Origin: an uncultured Thermoleophilia bacterium
GTDB lineage: Bacteria; Actinomycetota; Thermoleophilia; Gaiellales; Gaiellaceae
DNA: 64,000 nt
Reading direction: 5' to 3'
Assembly: GCA_963799905.1 (NCBI GenBank)
Contig: CAWCYU010000021.1
Coordinates: 19,628-83,627 of the forward strand
Under the pieces are notes generated by a model. That model ran no database searches. It saw only the letters and a program-made list of their open reading frames with translations, and had not been told where the DNA came from. Positions 18,841-24,831 of this stretch are shown in pieces (the first letter of the stretch is position 1; each line of letters starts with the position of its first letter). The position numbers were made by a program, and so were the translations under genes.

Positions 18841-20040
18841 ATGGACCGGCGAACGGTTCTGACCGTCGTGCTCGCAACGACCCTCCTGCTGGCCGGCTCG
18901 GCCGCGGGCGATCCGGGAACCGAGAAGGCGCGACTCGACGCGCGCATCGGCGACCTGCGGGCGCAGGCCGACCAGGCGGTCGGAACGGAAGGGCTGCTGA
19001 CGACGGAGGTGAGCGGCCTGAACTCCCGGGTGCGGGCCGCAGAGGAGGCGGTAGCTACCGAGCAGGCGCGTCTGGCTGCTCTGGAAGCGTCGCTCACCGC
19101 CGAGCGCGTGCGCCTCGCCGGCCTGGAGCAGAAGATCGCCGACGAGACGGCACGCCTCGCCATCCTTCAGCGGCAGTACGCCGCTGCGCTCGCGGTGCTC
19201 GAAAAGCGGCTGCGCATGATGTACGAATCGGACTCACCCGATGTGATCTCCTTCGCGCTCGGGACGACCTCGTTCTCCGACCTGCTCGACAACCTGGAGC
19301 TGCTCAATCGCATCGGGCGCCAGGACGAGCGCATCGCCGGCACGCTCGATCACGCACGGGTCGAGCTCGAACGGACACGCGCGACGACGAAGGAGGCACG
19401 GGATGGAGCCGCTCGGTCGGAGGCGCTGATCGCCTCCCGTACGGAGGAGCAGCGGGCGACGAGGGACAGGGTGGTGGCCACCCACGACGCGCTCGCCGCC
19501 GCCGAGCGTGCGAAGGCGGGCGCGCTCTCGCAGGTGCGGGAGGATCGCGCCTCCTTCATCGCCGAGGCGGAGGGCCTCGCCGCTCGAAGTGCTGCGCTCG
19601 CGGCACGCATCGCCGCGGCCCAGAGTGCGGCGAGCGCTCCGGCGACGGGCGCAGCCGCACCCGCAGCGAGCTCGAGCGGGCAGCTCGGCTGGCCGGTTGC
19701 GGGCCCGGTGACGAGCGGGTACGGATCGCGGTGGGGAAGGATGCACGAGGGGATCGACATCGCCGTCGGCTCAGGCACCCCGGTCCACGCGGCCGCGGCC
19801 GGAACCGTCGTCTACGCCGGCTGGATGGAGGGATACGGGAACCTGATCGTGATCGATCACGGCAACGGCCTGTCGACGGCGTACGCGCACAACTCGAGCC
19901 TGATCGTCGGACAGGGAGCCGTGGTCGGGACGGGCTACGTGATCGCGCTCTCGGGCAGCACGGGCCACTCGACGGGACCGCACGTGCACTTCGAGGTGCG
20001 CGTCAACGGAGCGCCCGTCGACCCGCTCGGCTATCTGTGA
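18841..20040 (+). CDS. Secreted coiled-coil M23 peptidase (EnvC/CwlO-like)
   Basis: Signal peptide, long coiled coil, HEGID, YAH and GHSTGPHVHFE. Confidence 0.92.
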   Translation: MDRRTVLTVVLATTLLLAGSAAGDPGTEKARLDARIGDLRAQADQAVGTEGLLTTEVSGLNSRVRAAEEAVATEQARLAALEASLTAERVRLAGLEQKIADETARLAILQRQYAAALAVLEKRLRMMYESDSPDVISFALGTTSFSDLLDNLELLNRIGRQDERIAGTLDHARVELERTRATTKEARDGAARSEALIASRTEEQRATRDRVVATHDALAAAERAKAGALSQVREDRASFIAEAEGLAARSAALAARIAAAQSAASAPATGAAAPAASSSGQLGWPVAGPVTSGYGSRWGRMHEGIDIAVGSGTPVHAAAAGTVVYAGWMEGYGNLIVIDHGNGLSTAYAHNSSLIVGQGAVVGTGYVIALSGSTGHSTGPHVHFEVRVNGAPVDPLGYL

Positions 20041-20081: not shown

Positions 20082-20615
20082 CTACGCAGCGTCGGTCGCG
20101 GCCGCCGGAAGCGCCTCGGCCGGGATGTAGCGCAGATCTGGCAGCGCGCGCCAGCGTTCCTCGAGGCCGAGGCCGTAGCCGGCGAACAGCTCGTCCGGAA
20201 CGGTGAACCCGACGTAGCGCAGGCCGATGTTCTCGACCAGTCGTCGGTAGGGGCGATCGAGCAGCGTCACTGCAGCAATGCTCGCCGGGCCCCGCTCCGC
20301 CAGCGTCCGCGTCAGGTACGCGAGCGTCAGGCCCGTGTCGACGACATCCTCTACGAGCAGCACGTCGCGCCCGTCGATCGGCGTATCGAGGTCCTTGAGC
20401 AGCCGCACCCCGCCGCGCCCGCCGTCGGAGTAGCCCGCGAGCTCGACCACGTCGATCGCGTGCAGGATCGGCAATGCCCGCGACAGGTCTGCGAGAAAGA
20501 CCGTGCTCGACTTCAGCGGCGCGACGAGTAGCGGCTCGCGGCCTGCATAATCGGCGGCGATCTCCGCTCCGAGCTCGCGAACGCGCGCAGCGATCTCGGC
20601 GGCCGAGAGGTACAC
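20082..20615 (-). CDS. hpt: Hypoxanthine phosphoribosyltransferase-like protein (start uncertain)
   Basis: IAARVRELGAEIAADY, PRPP loop VLLVEDVVDTGLTL, and FAGYGLG...RALP. Confidence 0.85.
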   Translation of the reverse strand: MYLSAAEIAARVRELGAEIAADYAGREPLLVAPLKSSTVFLADLSRALPILHAIDVVELAGYSDGGRGGVRLLKDLDTPIDGRDVLLVEDVVDTGLTLAYLTRTLAERGPASIAAVTLLDRPYRRLVENIGLRYVGFTVPDELFAGYGLGLEERWRALPDLRYIPAEALPAAATDAA

Positions 20616-20635
20616 CGCTCCTGCCGGGTCGTGTC

Positions 20636-21004
20636 CTATGACGCGAGCTTCAGTCGGTATCGCTGGGCGAGGCGCTCGAGATCGCGCCGGTAGAAGAGCT
20701 TGACGTTGACCTCCGGGTACTGCTCTCGCAGCTCCCGCAACTTGCGGTTCTTCCGTGTCACGAGCGACTGCTTCATCACCGTCACCTCGATGTAGAGGTT
20801 TTCCTCCGGGAGGAAGAAATCCGGTGTGAAAGCACGAGTGACGCGGCCATCGGTGTCTCGCTCGAGCACGAACGAGGTCGGCTCGTACTCCCACGGGATC
20901 CCGTACCAGTCGAGGATCCTGGCGCACTCGAGCTCGATCCGGTTGGCGAACCGCGGCGGCTCTGCCCCGCGGTAGGCCTGGAACCGGTGGGATTCCGACC
21001 GCAC
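20636..21004 (-). CDS. Small PD-(D/E)XK-fold nuclease-like protein
   Basis: E...WEYEP...FTPDFFL...YIEVT pattern, as in T7 endonuclease I/TnsA-like folds. The Lys of ExK is replaced (EVT). Confidence 0.65.
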   Translation of the reverse strand: MRSESHRFQAYRGAEPPRFANRIELECARILDWYGIPWEYEPTSFVLERDTDGRVTRAFTPDFFLPEENLYIEVTVMKQSLVTRKNRKLRELREQYPEVNVKLFYRRDLERLAQRYRLKLAS

Positions 21005-21010
21005 GATTCA

Positions 21011-21032
21011 ACGGTACTCCCGCACTCGGACG
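21011..21032 (-). promoter_or_regulatory. Putative PafBC-type promoter of the nuclease-hpt operon
   Basis: The minus strand reads CGTCCG-AGTGCGGGAG-TACCGT, 6 nt before GTG 21004. Confidence 0.6.
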
Positions 21033-21080
21033 ACCCCTTCGATTCTTCACCGTCCGACGGCAGCGTCGTAGACTGCTGCC

Positions 21081-21890
21081 ATGTCGAACGGCGCCCGGTC
21101 AGTGTTGCGCATCGCTCACCTCTCCGACCTGCATTGCGGTGAGCAGTACTTCGAGCCGACCTTGCTCGAGCGGGCGATCAGCGAGATCAACGAGCTCGCC
21201 CCCGACATCGTCATCTGCTCGGGCGATCTGACGACGCTGGGTTTCAAGCACGAGTACAAGCTGGCTCGGCAGTACATCGACAAGATCCAGTGCGAATCCC
21301 TGGTCGTGATCCCCGGGAACCACGACTCGCGCAACGTCGGTTACGTGCACTTCGAGGAGCTGTTCGGCCAGCGCAACTCGGTGCTCCGCAAGAGCGGGGT
21401 CACCGTCGTGGCGGTGGACTCGACGGAGCCCGACCTCGATCACGGCCAGATCGGGCGCGGCCGCTACGCCTGGATCGAGCGCGAGTTCGCCGCCGAGCCG
21501 GCCGACCTGAAGATCTTCGTTCTCCACCATCATCTGCTGCCCGTGCCGGGAACCGGCCGCGAGCGCAACGTCGTGTACGACGCCGGCGACGTGATCGAAT
21601 GCCTGCTTCGAGCCGGGGTGCAGCTCGTTCTCTCGGGCCACAAGCACGTCCCGTACGCGTGGCGGCTCGAAAACCTGTTCGTCGTCAACACCGGCACGGT
21701 TTCCTCGCTGCGTTTGCGGGGGAATACGAGACCCTGTTACAACGTGATCGAGATAACGGGGAGCCACGTCGACGTCTGGCGCCACCACCCGTTTCACGGC
21801 GAGGAGCGCATCATCCAGTTCTCGACCGACACCTTCGAATACGAGAAGTACACCGGGCGGATCGAGTCCGAGGTGACGTCGCGCTCGTGA
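21081..21890 (+). CDS. Calcineurin-like metallophosphoesterase (CpdA/Icc-like)
   Basis: HLSDLH, SGDLT, PGNHD, HHH and GHKH motifs. TAGACT -10 lies 6 nt before the ATG. Confidence 0.92.
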   Translation: MSNGARSVLRIAHLSDLHCGEQYFEPTLLERAISEINELAPDIVICSGDLTTLGFKHEYKLARQYIDKIQCESLVVIPGNHDSRNVGYVHFEELFGQRNSVLRKSGVTVVAVDSTEPDLDHGQIGRGRYAWIEREFAAEPADLKIFVLHHHLLPVPGTGRERNVVYDAGDVIECLLRAGVQLVLSGHKHVPYAWRLENLFVVNTGTVSSLRLRGNTRPCYNVIEITGSHVDVWRHHPFHGEERIIQFSTDTFEYEKYTGRIESEVTSRS

Positions 21891-23164
21891 GGGCGATCGC
21901 CGTGATCGACGGGGAGCACTATGCCTCCGTGGTCAGCGATGCGCTCGTCGAGCTGCCCTACGAGATCGTCGCCTGCGTGCTCGTCGGCGGCACCGAGAAG
22001 CTCCACGGCGGGGAAGGATACGGCGTGCCGCTCGCCGCTTCGCTCGAGAGCGCGATCGCGGAGTACGCGCCTGACGTGGTCCTCGACCTCTCGGACGAGC
22101 CCGTGCTCGGCCCACCGGCCCGTCTGAGGCTGGCCGCGAGGACGCTCGTGCTCGGGGTTCCGTACGAGGGAGCCGACTTCAGGTTCGACCCGCCTCGCTT
22201 CGACCCGATCCGGACGCCCTCTGTCGCGGTGATCGGGACAGGCAAGCGGGTCGGGAAGACCGCCGTCACCGGCCACGTGGCTCGCGCCTTTGCACGGCAG
22301 CGAAGCGTGGTCGTGGTCGCGATGGGACGTGGTGGGCCCGCCGAGCCCGAGCTCGTCGAGGTGCGGCCGACGTTGTCCGACCTGCTCGCGCTGTCACGGG
22401 CTGGGCGTCATGCAGCATCCGACCACCTGGAGACAGCGGCGCTCACGGGCCTGCAGACGGTCGGCTGCCGCCGCTGCGGCGGCGGGCTCGCCGGCGCTGT
22501 CGGAACATCCAACGTGCTCGCGGGCGTCCGGCTGGCGGAGGGCCTCGATCCCGACCTGATCGTGCTCGACGGGAGCGGCGCAGCTATCCCGCCGATCGCC
22601 GCCGACCGCCGGATTCTCGTCGTCGGCGCCCACCAGGAAACGGCTGTTGCGGCCGGCTACCTCAACCCGTACCGCGCCTTGCTCGCCGATCTGGTGGTGA
22701 TCACGATGGCGGAGGACGGCCTCGCTCACGGGGCACTCGCCGAGGCATTCCAGGAGCTCGTGCGGCCGAGCGTGCCCATCGTGCGCGTGGTGCTGCGCCC
22801 GCGGCCGCTCGGCGACGTCCGCGGCCGCCGGATCGCGTACTTCGGCACAGCTCCCGCGGCGGGGCACGACCTCATCGCCTCACATCTCGCTGCGGCATAC
22901 GGTGCCGACGTGGCGCACGTCTCCGGCAGGCTGGGCGACCGCGAAGCGCTGCGGACAGAGCTCGCGGGCCTCGACGCCGAGCTGCTCGTGGTCGAGGTCA
23001 AGGCCGCAGCGATCGACGTCGTGGCCGAAGAGGCGGCCAGGCTCGGGATTCCCGTCCTCCTCGCGGCGAACGACATCGTCCCGCTCGCCGACGAGCCCAG
23101 CCTCGACGTCGAGCTCGAGCGTCTGGCCACCGAGGCGATCTCCGCGGCGGCGATCGGCGTATGA
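21887..23164 (+). CDS. cpgS: Cyclic 2,3-diphosphoglycerate synthetase
   Basis: IDGEHY, GGTEKL, DLSDEPV, GTGKRVGKT, AMGRGGP, HAASDH, GCRRCGGG, GSGAAIPP and EVKAAAIDV match archaeal CpgS. GTGA overlap with the upstream gene. Confidence 0.9.
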   Translation: MRAIAVIDGEHYASVVSDALVELPYEIVACVLVGGTEKLHGGEGYGVPLAASLESAIAEYAPDVVLDLSDEPVLGPPARLRLAARTLVLGVPYEGADFRFDPPRFDPIRTPSVAVIGTGKRVGKTAVTGHVARAFARQRSVVVVAMGRGGPAEPELVEVRPTLSDLLALSRAGRHAASDHLETAALTGLQTVGCRRCGGGLAGAVGTSNVLAGVRLAEGLDPDLIVLDGSGAAIPPIAADRRILVVGAHQETAVAAGYLNPYRALLADLVVITMAEDGLAHGALAEAFQELVRPSVPIVRVVLRPRPLGDVRGRRIAYFGTAPAAGHDLIASHLAAAYGADVAHVSGRLGDREALRTELAGLDAELLVVEVKAAAIDVVAEEAARLGIPVLLAANDIVPLADEPSLDVELERLATEAISAAAIGV

Positions 23165-24075
23165 GCGAGCGCCGCTATCTGGCACCGCTGCCGCTCGGCG
23201 GCGACGAGGGACCGCCGTGGTCGAAGGGGCTGATGGCGCGGGCACTCGCGGCGACCGGTTTGGATCCGACTCGAGCCTATGAGCTCGCCCGGCGTGCCGA
23301 CGCGGACATGGTTCAGCGGGGCGCGCTCGAGCTCGACCTCGACCGGCTGGGGGAGATCACCGCGGAGGTGCTCGAGGAACCGGAGTCGGGGCGGACGATG
23401 AGGCGCCTGCGCCGCCTGCAGGCGTTGCAGCATCTCGAGCTTCCCGTCGTCTTGCTCGTGGGTGGGGCCACGGGCACCGGCAAGTCGACGCTCGCGACCG
23501 AGGCGGCGCACCGCCTCGGGATCACCAGGGTGACATCGACGGACTTCATCCGGCAGACGATGCGCGCGTTCTTCTCCCGCGAGTTCATGCCGTCCGTGCA
23601 CTACTCGAGCTTCGACGCCGAGCTTGCGTTGAGCAGGGCGGACGAGGATCTCTCGGGCGATGCGGGACTGCTGGGGTTCCTCGACCAGACCAGGAACGTG
23701 CTCGTCGGCGTCGAGGCGGCGATCGACCGCTCGCTGACGGAGGGCTGGTCGATGGTGCTCGAGGGCGTCCACATCGTTCCGGGCATGATCGCCGTCGATC
23801 GGGCGGACGCACTCGTCGTTCAGTGCCTTGTCGCGATCAGCGACGAGCACGCTCATCGCAGCCACTTCTGGGTGCGTGACGCATCGACGGAGGGCCTCCG
23901 TCCGCTCGAGAAATACCTCGAAGGCATGCCGGAGATCCGGATGATCCAGGACGTGCTGCTCGAGCGGGCACGGCGGTTCGACGTGCCCGTGATCGAGAAC
24001 ACCTCTCTCGACGAGGCGATCGGCCAGGTGCTCGACCTCGTGCTGACGGGCGCCGAGCGGCTGGCCCGCGTCTGA
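23161..24075 (+). CDS. pgk2: 2-phosphoglycerate kinase (ATP-cone-like + P-loop)
   Basis: PWSKGLMARAL, GGATGTGKST, STDFIRQTMR and EGVHIVPG. ATGA overlap with cpgS. Confidence 0.88.
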   Translation: MSERRYLAPLPLGGDEGPPWSKGLMARALAATGLDPTRAYELARRADADMVQRGALELDLDRLGEITAEVLEEPESGRTMRRLRRLQALQHLELPVVLLVGGATGTGKSTLATEAAHRLGITRVTSTDFIRQTMRAFFSREFMPSVHYSSFDAELALSRADEDLSGDAGLLGFLDQTRNVLVGVEAAIDRSLTEGWSMVLEGVHIVPGMIAVDRADALVVQCLVAISDEHAHRSHFWVRDASTEGLRPLEKYLEGMPEIRMIQDVLLERARRFDVPVIENTSLDEAIGQVLDLVLTGAERLARV

Positions 24076-24081
24076 GCGGGC

Positions 24082-24831
24082 TCACACTGCCGGGCGGGCG
24101 TACGCATACCACCCGGCGGGCGCGAGACCGAGCGTCTCGTACAGCCCCCCTGCCGTGACGTTGCGCTCCTGAACCGCGAGCAGGGTGCGCCGGGCACCGC
24201 GCTCCGACGCCCACTCCGCGATTGCCGCGACCGCACGTGTGGCGACCCGACGCCGCCTCGCTGCCGCCGTCGTTGCGATGCACTCGAGGACGAGCGTCTC
24301 CTCGACGAGAACGCCGAGCGCGGTCCCGACCATGGTGCCGGCGTCCGCCACCTGCGCGAACACTGCGTGCTCGAGCCGCGCGAGGAGCGCTGCAACGACG
24401 GCCCGCTCTCGCGCCGTCCGGCGTGGTTCGACAGCGCACCAGGTTGCGAGCCACTCCTCCGACGCGTGGCTCGTGAGTGAGACGTCCTCGGTCGGCCCGG
24501 CAGGCGGGAGCGGCCCGGCGAGCAGGAGCGTGCGATCGATCCCGGTTGCCCAGCCGCGCGCTGCGAGCCGCTCGCGGAGCCGGGGCGGCCATGTCGCTCC
24601 CGTGAGCTGAAGCCAGGGTGTCAAGCCGCGTCGCGCGTACACCTCGAGGGAGCGCGTGAGCAGATGATCGAGCCCCGCGTCGTCGCTGTCGGTGCCGTTC
24701 CCGTGCGTGAGCACCGAGTTCGCCCGGCGCGTGACGCCGTCGTCGAGCCGGGCCGTCCACGGCCCTATCGCCACCGTCTCCCGGGGTCGCCATGCCTGCT
24801 GGAGCACGAGGTCGAGGGCGGCTTGCTCCAC
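24082..24831 (-). CDS. GNAT-family N-acetyltransferase
   Basis: QAW...GVTRRANSV N-terminus, ARRRRVA acetyl-CoA loop and NVTAGGLYETLG. Confidence 0.82.
   Translation of the reverse strand: MEQAALDLVLQQAWRPRETVAIGPWTARLDDGVTRRANSVLTHGNGTDSDDAGLDHLLTRSLEVYARRGLTPWLQLTGATWPPRLRERLAARGWATGIDRTLLLAGPLPPAGPTEDVSLTSHASEEWLATWCAVEPRRTARERAVVAALLARLEHAVFAQVADAGTMVGTALGVLVEETLVLECIATTAAARRRRVATRAVAAIAEWASERGARRTLLAVQERNVTAGGLYETLGLAPAGWYAYARPAV

Follow-up and report, generated by a model that had tools for sequence, protein, structure and literature searches.

We describe a metallophosphoesterase (MPE) gene and its product, P0001, from a 64,000-nucleotide stretch of DNA (the window; positions 19,628 to 83,627 of contig CAWCYU010000021.1, assembly GCA_963799905.1) of an uncultured Thermoleophilia bacterium of the family Gaiellaceae (Actinomycetota). 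The gene stands first of three, the second and third encoding homologues of cyclic 2,3-diphosphoglycerate (cDPG) synthetase (cDPGS; gene cpgS) and of 2-phosphoglycerate kinase (2PGK), and P0001 is the best candidate for the hydrolase of this metabolic branch. The features of the locus, in window coordinates, are these:

21069..21074, + strand: hexamer TAGACT, resembling a -10 element (read directly; conserved in congeneric loci)
21081..21890, + strand: MPE gene P0001, first gene of the operon (translation, motifs, PF00149, AlphaFold2 model, Foldseek)
21887..21890, + strand: GTGA overlap of the MPE stop and the cDPGS start (sequence read)
21887..23164, + strand: cDPGS homologue, 425 amino acids (aa) (PDB matches, motifs)
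23161..23164, + strand: ATGA overlap of the 2PGK start and the cDPGS stop (sequence read)
23161..24075, + strand: 2PGK homologue, 304 aa, last gene of the operon (NCBIfam)

The open reading frame at 21081-21890 (+) translates into 269 aa with no internal stop, and all five calcineurin-type motifs are intact: D16-x-H18, G48-D49, G79-N80-H81-D82, H149-H150-H151, and G186-H187-K188-H189. The protein also carries the signatures GNHDSRNVGY (residues 79-88) and DSTEPDLD (113-120), so that the site and signatures are as an earlier reading of the letters alone (the sequence-only reading) had described them. The Pfam Metallophos profile PF00149 is covered in full (E 6e-20, 72.9 bits against a 21.5-bit cut-off). 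An AlphaFold2 model computed from a 42-sequence alignment has a pLDDT of 92.5 and a pTM of 0.92, and at least 369 PDB structures match it in Foldseek at E<=0.001, with the MPE fold, a beta-sandwich flanked by helices, in every match listed; the closest are GpdQ, Rv0805, and purple acid phosphatases (TM-score about 0.7, 15-20% identity), phosphodiesterases and phosphatases whose substrates are small phosphate esters, and SMPDL3 and Vps29 are listed as well. Across the 42-member alignment the metal ligands are invariant or nearly so, and the non-ligand residues R84, D113-S114, P117-D118, G122, G125, and the loop G159-R160-E161-R162 are found subfamily-wide. No transmembrane helix is predicted in P0001 or in three Methanobacteriaceae homologues (maximum 19-residue Kyte-Doolittle hydropathy 1.13 and 0.47-1.12, respectively), although peripheral membrane binding is conceivable. 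From its sequence and model, P0001 is thus predicted to be a soluble, catalytically intact, single-domain binuclear metallophosphoesterase.

P0001 is single copy within its own genome (E<=1e-10) and belongs to a small subfamily, with 255 matches at E<=1e-30 among 1.84 billion cluster representatives, in which single-domain proteins measure about 250-290 aa and tandem ones about 490-550 aa. Judged by profile scores, it is a member of the MPE superfamily that lies outside every characterised family, because no curated model in an NCBIfam scan came near its own cut-off. An anti-phage role was considered and rejected, the top NCBIfam match, to the DS9 phosphoesterase, reaching 78 of 420 bits with partial coverage.

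The same scores bear on the possibility that P0001 has a signalling role like that of Rv0805/CpdA, as a phosphodiesterase for cAMP, a 2',3'-cyclic nucleotide monophosphate (2',3'-cNMP), or a related nucleotide, with an operon link that is regulatory and not metabolic. Rv0805 and GpdQ are the closest sequences with structures in a PDB sequence search (E about 1e-9), weak NCBIfam matches do fall on cAMP and 2',3'-cNMP phosphodiesterase models, and the archaeal forms described below are accompanied by CBS-pair proteins, which usually bind adenosine ligands. Yet P0001 reaches 43.8 bits on the cAMP phosphodiesterase-type model NF008359, whose equivalog cut-off is 225 bits, and 40.1 bits on the SpdA 2',3'-cNMP phosphodiesterase model, whose cut-off is 400 bits; identity to the solved relatives is only 15-20%, and it is not evident why a nucleotide phosphodiesterase should accompany 2PGK and cDPGS in bacteria and archaea alike, and in rearranged gene orders. 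We regard this explanation as quite improbable.

The partners of the MPE gene are more readily named. Its stop codon (TGA, 21888-21890) overlaps the GTG start (21887-21889) of cpgS, whose product matches the Methanothermus fervidus cDPG synthetase over its full length (PDB 8oru/8ork, E 8e-88; 9sxb, E 5e-82) and retains the P-loop, GRGGP, HAASDH, GCRRCGGG, and GSGAAIPP blocks; NCBI and JGI name its near relatives 2,3-diphosphoglycerate synthetase (PF27272), and the names given to near-identical synthetases point to Gaiellales/Thermoleophilia, Actinomycetota, as the source. The 2PGK homologue matches NF008994 (E 6e-80) and NF003259 (E 5e-76), in both cases under the equivalog cut-off (256 bits against 343 for NF003259). 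Its stop lies at 24073-24075, 6 bp away from a convergent gene ending at 24082, and the gene upstream of the MPE, encoding an HPRT-like protein (20082-21050, -), is divergent; because of these two neighbours we take the operon to comprise three genes. The hexamer TAGACT ends 6 nucleotides (nt) before the MPE ATG, and TAGACT or TACACT is likewise placed in ten congeneric loci, a conservation that makes it the likely promoter of a leaderless operon transcript. Both the leading position of the MPE and the overlap of its stop with the cpgS start had been read from the letters, and both are borne out. We propose that MPE, cDPGS, and 2PGK are made from one leaderless, translationally coupled operon, an arrangement read from the gene boundaries.

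Scans of the operon region for sigma-70 consensus promoters and terminators found nothing, and in the ten congeneric upstream regions no phosphate box or other shared regulatory motif was seen beyond the -10 hexamer and the word CGGACG, which seems to go with the divergent gene. The word CTCGGACG is conserved at 21028-21035 of the window and at equivalent positions in loci L002-L009, about 45-55 nt 5' of the operon start; it reads CGTCCGAG on the opposite strand and is probably part of the promoter of the divergent HPRT-like gene. In the HPRT-like frame (20082-21050, -), about 145 residues precede the phosphoribosyltransferase domain.

The sequence-only reading had named co-occurrence and adjacency with cpgS as a check on its proposal, and this check, set beforehand, came out strongly positive in Actinomycetota and in Thermococci. 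For Actinomycetota we used two draws of genomes: 41 relatives from the window's order, and an even sample of 401 genomes of the phylum in which the MPE was called at E<=1e-30 and the lists were compared by hand. Because kin are not independent, the co-occurrence counts are descriptive and carry no test statistic. Within the order, cpgS occurs in 31 of the 41 genomes. In the window's genus and family f5, the gene immediately preceding cpgS, in the same orientation, is an MPE ortholog (68-92% identity); the family f4 ortholog (60-61% identity) is set apart from cpgS by 430-700 bp. Genomes of the order without cpgS hold only paralogs, at 31-35% or 48-51% identity. At related-family loci with the gap of about 430-700 bp (L025:3534-6218, -; L026:5061-7874, +), the cpgS frame is about 90-110 codons longer on its 5' side, a stretch that may be an extension of the protein, a small additional gene, or a spacer.

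In the phylum sample we found cpgS in 229 genomes and the MPE in 227; 225 genomes have both, 170 neither, 4 cpgS only, and 2 the MPE only, and the MPE lies directly upstream of cDPGS wherever positions are listed. We take this linkage to exceed chance by far. Leaving out 14 unpublished genomes (G358, G279, G058, G122, G088, G266, G214, G041, G383, G188, G128, G160, G308, and G431; none of the loci read is from them) gives 212 with both, 170 with neither, 3 with cpgS only, and 2 with the MPE only. Four of the six discordant genomes are explained: in the cpgS-only genomes G235 and G321 a contig end cuts off the MPE position, and the two MPE-only genomes fall, together with G034, in a sister paralog clade (support 99/95), the operon-linked MPEs forming one clade of their own (98/93). 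Of the other two, G431 contains only a fragment of cpgS, and G059, in which a peptidase S49 gene occupies the MPE position, is the one clear exception in the sample. At the G059 locus (L023:2988-6349), peptidase S49 and glycogen-debranching/mannosylglycerate-hydrolase-like genes precede cpgS-2PGK, and a transaldolase gene follows.

When the counts are broken down by family, the cpgS and MPE tallies are identical in 26 of the 30 families itemised and differ by one genome each in the other four (f9, f13, f25, and f29). A congener with 97% completeness, G023, has neither cpgS nor the MPE and keeps a 50-residue 2PGK remnant (65% identity; C45:11998-12141), which suggests a recent deletion of the whole operon. 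These patterns bear on the plainest alternative, that P0001 is a general housekeeping phosphoesterase and its adjacency to cpgS is inherited synteny without functional meaning. The MPE superfamily is large and promiscuous, members of the paralog clade and more distant ones sit in unrelated contexts, and the phylum pattern could largely be vertical inheritance of one ancestral arrangement. The family tallies speak against it, MPE and cpgS being kept or lost jointly, as does the joint loss in G023; so does a related archaeal clade, described below, whose genes keep these partners in two distinct arrangements. Inherited synteny is by itself an unlikely explanation, because two MPE clades share partners in two domains and in several gene orders, and we find the housekeeping explanation very hard to credit.

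Long open frames at some loci resembled MPE-cDPGS fusion proteins, and these were rejected, since stop codons intervene in all eight loci tested (8/8). Family f23 contains a recent duplicate of the operon MPE; in three genomes this duplicate and a gene for a SAM hydroxide adenosyltransferase (PF01887) are arranged tail-to-tail (L028:157-1845, L029:5853-7492, and L031:6191-7924).

Of the three operon products, the MPE varies least within the window's genus: identity is 83-92%, compared with 77-90% in 2PGK and 63-80% in cDPGS. Such conservation, together with translational coupling, is what an obligatory pathway step would show, and it is a point for a different explanation in which the bacterial cDPGS and 2PGK homologues yield an end product other than cDPG, and the MPE acts in a forward biosynthetic or repair step, for example trimming a phosphorylated intermediate (compare the mannosylglycerate and glucosylglycerate phosphatases) or destroying a toxic side product. 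Synthase-phosphatase pairs are described as the rule in compatible-solute synthesis in an excerpt of PMC1224877, cDPG is unreported from bacteria in the portion of PMC10690619 available to us, and the chemistry of the family can shift, the arginine synthetase ArcE being a distant relative of cDPGS (PMC11032458). Against this, the window cDPGS keeps the conserved blocks of the M. fervidus enzyme and is closer to it (E 8e-88) than to ArcE; the known cDPG route requires no phosphatase, as far as the same excerpt of PMC1224877 describes it; and in the neighbourhoods examined we found no further biosynthetic gene conserved beside the MPE-cDPGS-2PGK trio. We judge a forward step improbable.

The archaeal relatives indicate which of the two partners the MPE follows more closely. 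A 78-residue piece of the M. fervidus cDPGS, as aligned in the PDB search, picked up 34 cpgS loci in archaea; among them are loci of Methanobrevibacter metagenome-assembled genomes, apparently from termite- and rumen-type samples. Among 133 Thermococci genomes, 97 have cpgS, and the MPE is a tandem protein (MPE2) of about 505-520 aa. The gene order in Thermococcus is CBS > MPE2 > < 2PGK < cpgS, and in another genus (G760) it is cpgS > 2PGK > CBS > MPE2. MPE and cpgS occur together in 96 of these genomes, the MPE alone in 13, cpgS alone in 1, and neither in 23; for MPE and 2PGK the corresponding counts are 106, 3, 1, and 23. The Thermococci MPE tracks 2PGK (4 discordant genomes) better than it tracks cDPGS (14 discordant).

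Of the 13 genomes with an MPE and no cpgS found, 12 have 2PGK, and it stands beside MPE2 in all 11 for which MPE coordinates are listed (G644-649, G668, G670-673). The order is 2PGK > CBS > MPE2 in G649, and apgM > 2PGK, < CBS, MPE2 > in G668 and G671. A Thermococcus cDPGS query gave no match at E 1e-3 in five genomes that have 2PGK-MPE2 and no cpgS, and the 2PGKs of the Thermococci without cpgS reach or approach the NCBI 2PGK equivalog score. In two genomes the gene directly upstream of 2PGK is apgM, for cofactor-independent phosphoglycerate mutase (PF10143; L078:2936-5047, +; L096:606-2680, +), and all four genes of that neighbourhood (apgM, 2PGK, CBS, and MPE2) concern 2-phosphoglycerate (2-PG), 3-phosphoglycerate (3-PG), or 2,3-diphosphoglycerate (2,3-DPG).

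The N-terminal half of MPE2 keeps every catalytic and signature residue, and in the seven N-domains aligned these are identical to those of the window protein. N80 and H81 are missing from the C-terminal half, as are D16, H18, and H189 in Thermococcales; this half probably serves as a catalytically inactive stand-in for a dimer mate. A two-CBS-domain protein of 139-146 aa always adjoins MPE2 (for example at L073:5136-7097, +; L074:5577-7528, -; and L095:7164-9047, +), and together the two look like a regulated pseudo-dimer.

These genomes bear on the strict form of the cDPG proposal, a sub-case of the hydrolase role set out below, in which the MPE would turn cDPG into 2,3-DPG by opening the cyclic pyrophosphate and would not act appreciably on 2,3-DPG itself. 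MPE-fold enzymes do cleave phosphoanhydrides, as LpxH/LpxG and ApaH do, and the sole NCBIfam trace of such chemistry in P0001 is a weak LpxG match (30.6 of 350 bits). Actinomycetota yielded no member of the operon clade without cpgS, it is the cpgS start and not the 2PGK start that the MPE stop overlaps, and a cDPG-to-2,3-DPG activity without a gene exists in methanogens, according to an excerpt of PMC1224877. Set against these points are the 12 Thermococci genomes that have no cpgS found and keep 2PGK (beside the MPE in the 11 listed), the identical catalytic and signature residues in the seven aligned N-domains of genomes without cpgS, the methanogen homologues that are unlinked to cpgS, and the membrane-bound nature of the activity reported in that excerpt, P0001 being predicted to be soluble. 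We consider strict cDPG specificity unlikely. The suggestion that P0001 is the cDPG turnover enzyme survives in part: the linkage upholds its role in the pathway, and its specificity for cDPG is less sure, as the archaeal MPE follows 2PGK more closely than cpgS. The compound 2,3-DPG is at least as likely a substrate as cDPG, because the MPE lies beside 2PGK, with the same residues, where no cpgS was found.

In Methanobacteriota (201 genomes) cpgS occurs in 185 and the 2PGK family in 197; with 197 of 201 genomes positive, 2PGK gives no contrast here and was dropped as a discriminator. MPE homologues of 40-50% identity (E<=1e-30) are present in 184 of the 201 genomes, at 1-3 each and not adjacent to cpgS, and these provide candidate genes for the Methanothermobacter hydrolase. 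The cDPG hydrolase activity of M. thermautotrophicus was described without a gene (Sastry et al. 1992, as cited in an excerpt of PMC1224877), and the same excerpt gives the methanogen enzyme as membrane-bound, inhibited by K+ and inorganic phosphate (Pi), and converting cDPG to 2,3-DPG. Full-text literature searches found no paper that links a metallophosphoesterase to cDPG or names the hydrolase gene, in agreement with the sequence-only reading, which knew of no firm assignment.

Elsewhere in archaea, a single-domain member of the subfamily follows a gene for an AbrB-PhoU regulator (L076:5315-7231), and an MPE-LMWPc (PF01451) fusion lies beside a PHO4 transporter, PhoU_div, and an AbrB-PhoU regulator (L092:2468-6951 and L093:1014-5559). 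The position of these two members near genes of phosphate regulation and uptake fits phosphate mobilisation, in two cases only.

The MPE clades are tied to 2PGK and cDPGS in both bacteria and archaea, which makes a role in the same pathway reasonable, and, from this gene linkage, we rate a pathway role as very likely. The constant partner of the MPE would be 2PGK, with cDPGS added in many lineages. More specifically, the MPE is probably a hydrolase dedicated to the 2PGK/cDPGS branch, one that feeds the stored compound back into glycolysis and sets phosphate free. By one route, the MPE would strip one phosphate from 2,3-DPG to give 2-PG or 3-PG and Pi, cDPG first being reopened by a reversible cDPGS; the M. 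fervidus cDPGS is reported to be reversible in an excerpt of PMC1224877. By the other, it would open the cyclic pyrophosphate of cDPG to give 2,3-DPG. A dual activity is conceivable, as cDPG and 2,3-DPG share the carboxylate and both phosphates. As the main activity, a 2,3-DPG phosphatase is possible and we advance it only tentatively; cDPG ring-opening we take to be unlikely, and possession of both activities is more doubtful still.

A hydrolase that is co-produced with the synthetic enzymes would have to be kept in check at the level of metabolites, not of transcription. For archaea the candidates for such restraint would be the CBS-pair protein and the dead second MPE domain; CBS pairs are adenosine-nucleotide sensors. 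The inhibition of the methanogen hydrolase by K+ and Pi is the type of control that would avoid a futile cycle.

Several observations weigh against the hydrolase role. Beyond the fold and motifs, the assignment of the MPE is guilt by association, and, with kin not independent, the two-by-two tables for Actinomycetota and archaea overstate the number of independent events. Translating a hydrolase together with the synthetic enzymes could waste ATP in a futile cycle, and the bacterial three-gene operon shows no regulator. In Methanobacteriota co-occurrence is looser (176 genomes with both, 9 with cpgS only, 8 with the MPE only, and 8 with neither), and neither 2PGK nor an MPE lies within 10 kb of cpgS in 31 Methanobacteriaceae/Methanobrevibacter loci. 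The methanogen cDPG hydrolase is membrane-bound in the account excerpted from PMC1224877, whereas P0001 is, by prediction, soluble. Signature residues are identical in the sister paralog clade, in genomes where neither cpgS nor 2PGK was found (G157, G034); because unlinked paralogs carry the same residues, the signature alone does not specify the substrate, and at the catalytic and signature positions of the alignment no residue separates the operon clade from these paralogs, so that we name no specificity determinant. Distant members (37-42% identity) occur in unrelated neighbourhoods, and four of seven look-ups of members at middle distance fell on uninformative contigs of 1.5-2.2 kb. Finally, we know of no demonstration of cDPG in any bacterium.

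A broader reading, which we put forward tentatively and lean slightly against, is that the MPE subfamily is the missing exit enzyme of 2,3-DPG/cDPG metabolism, looked for since the 1992 description of a hydrolase activity, and forms, with 2PGK and cDPGS, a regulated store of phosphate, carbon, and energy. Besides hot methanogens, over half of the Actinomycetota species sampled and most Thermococci would draw on such a store, and the archaeal core unit would be 2PGK-CBS-MPE, with cDPGS an optional extension. A role of cDPG as a store of carbon, phosphate, and energy has been proposed (excerpts of PMC1224877 and PMC10690619), and the compound is stated to be exclusive to hyperthermophilic methanogens (excerpt of PMC10690619). 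The cDPGS homologues are far more common than this exclusivity implies, occurring in 229 of 401 Actinomycetota, 185 of 201 Methanobacteriota, and 97 of 133 Thermococci.

With a candidate that is conserved and can be cloned, the 30-year-old gap of the hydrolase gene becomes directly testable, and, according to an excerpt of PMC12136491, cDPG can now be obtained enzymatically. In the parts of PMC10690619 and PMC12136491 available to us, cDPG is viewed as an extremolyte and is under development as a protein stabiliser; deleting or avoiding the MPE offers a handle for higher cDPG yields in production hosts. The wide presence of the module in mostly mesophilic Actinomycetota suggests that abundant bacteria of soil and fresh water have an unstudied reserve of phosphate or energy, or that 2,3-DPG controls lower glycolysis in them. 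An MPE that follows 2PGK where cDPGS was not found would also give a first functional clue for the many 2PGK homologues of non-cDPG organisms.

Compared with known systems, the locus most resembles the cDPG pathway of Methanothermus fervidus and Methanothermobacter, the window 2PGK and cDPGS being full-length homologues of the characterised enzymes. It differs in that the bacterial genes form one operon with a third conserved gene, whereas in Methanobacteriota neither 2PGK nor an MPE is found within 10 kb of cpgS. P0001 itself shares the fold and binuclear metal site of GpdQ (Enterobacter aerogenes; 2dxl, 3d03) and Rv0805 (Mycobacterium tuberculosis; 2hy1, 3ib7), its best solved matches (sequence E about 1e-9; Foldseek E 2e-15, TM-score 0.72), but identity is 17-20% and the NCBIfam cut-offs for cAMP/cNMP phosphodiesterases are widely missed. 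Rv0805 is a class III cNMP phosphodiesterase and GpdQ a glycerophosphodiesterase, and to our knowledge neither is linked to phosphoglycerate metabolism. By function, the closest analogy may be the 2,3-bisphosphoglycerate (2,3-BPG) pool of animals, in which a dedicated maker and a dedicated phosphatase (bisphosphoglycerate mutase/phosphatase and MIPP1) set a pool beside glycolysis; unlike P0001, the animal enzymes are histidine phosphatases, and synthesis is by a mutase from 1,3-bisphosphoglycerate and not by a kinase from 2-PG. What is new, then, would be a functional subfamily defined by its genomic partners, the protein itself being an ordinary member of a known superfamily.

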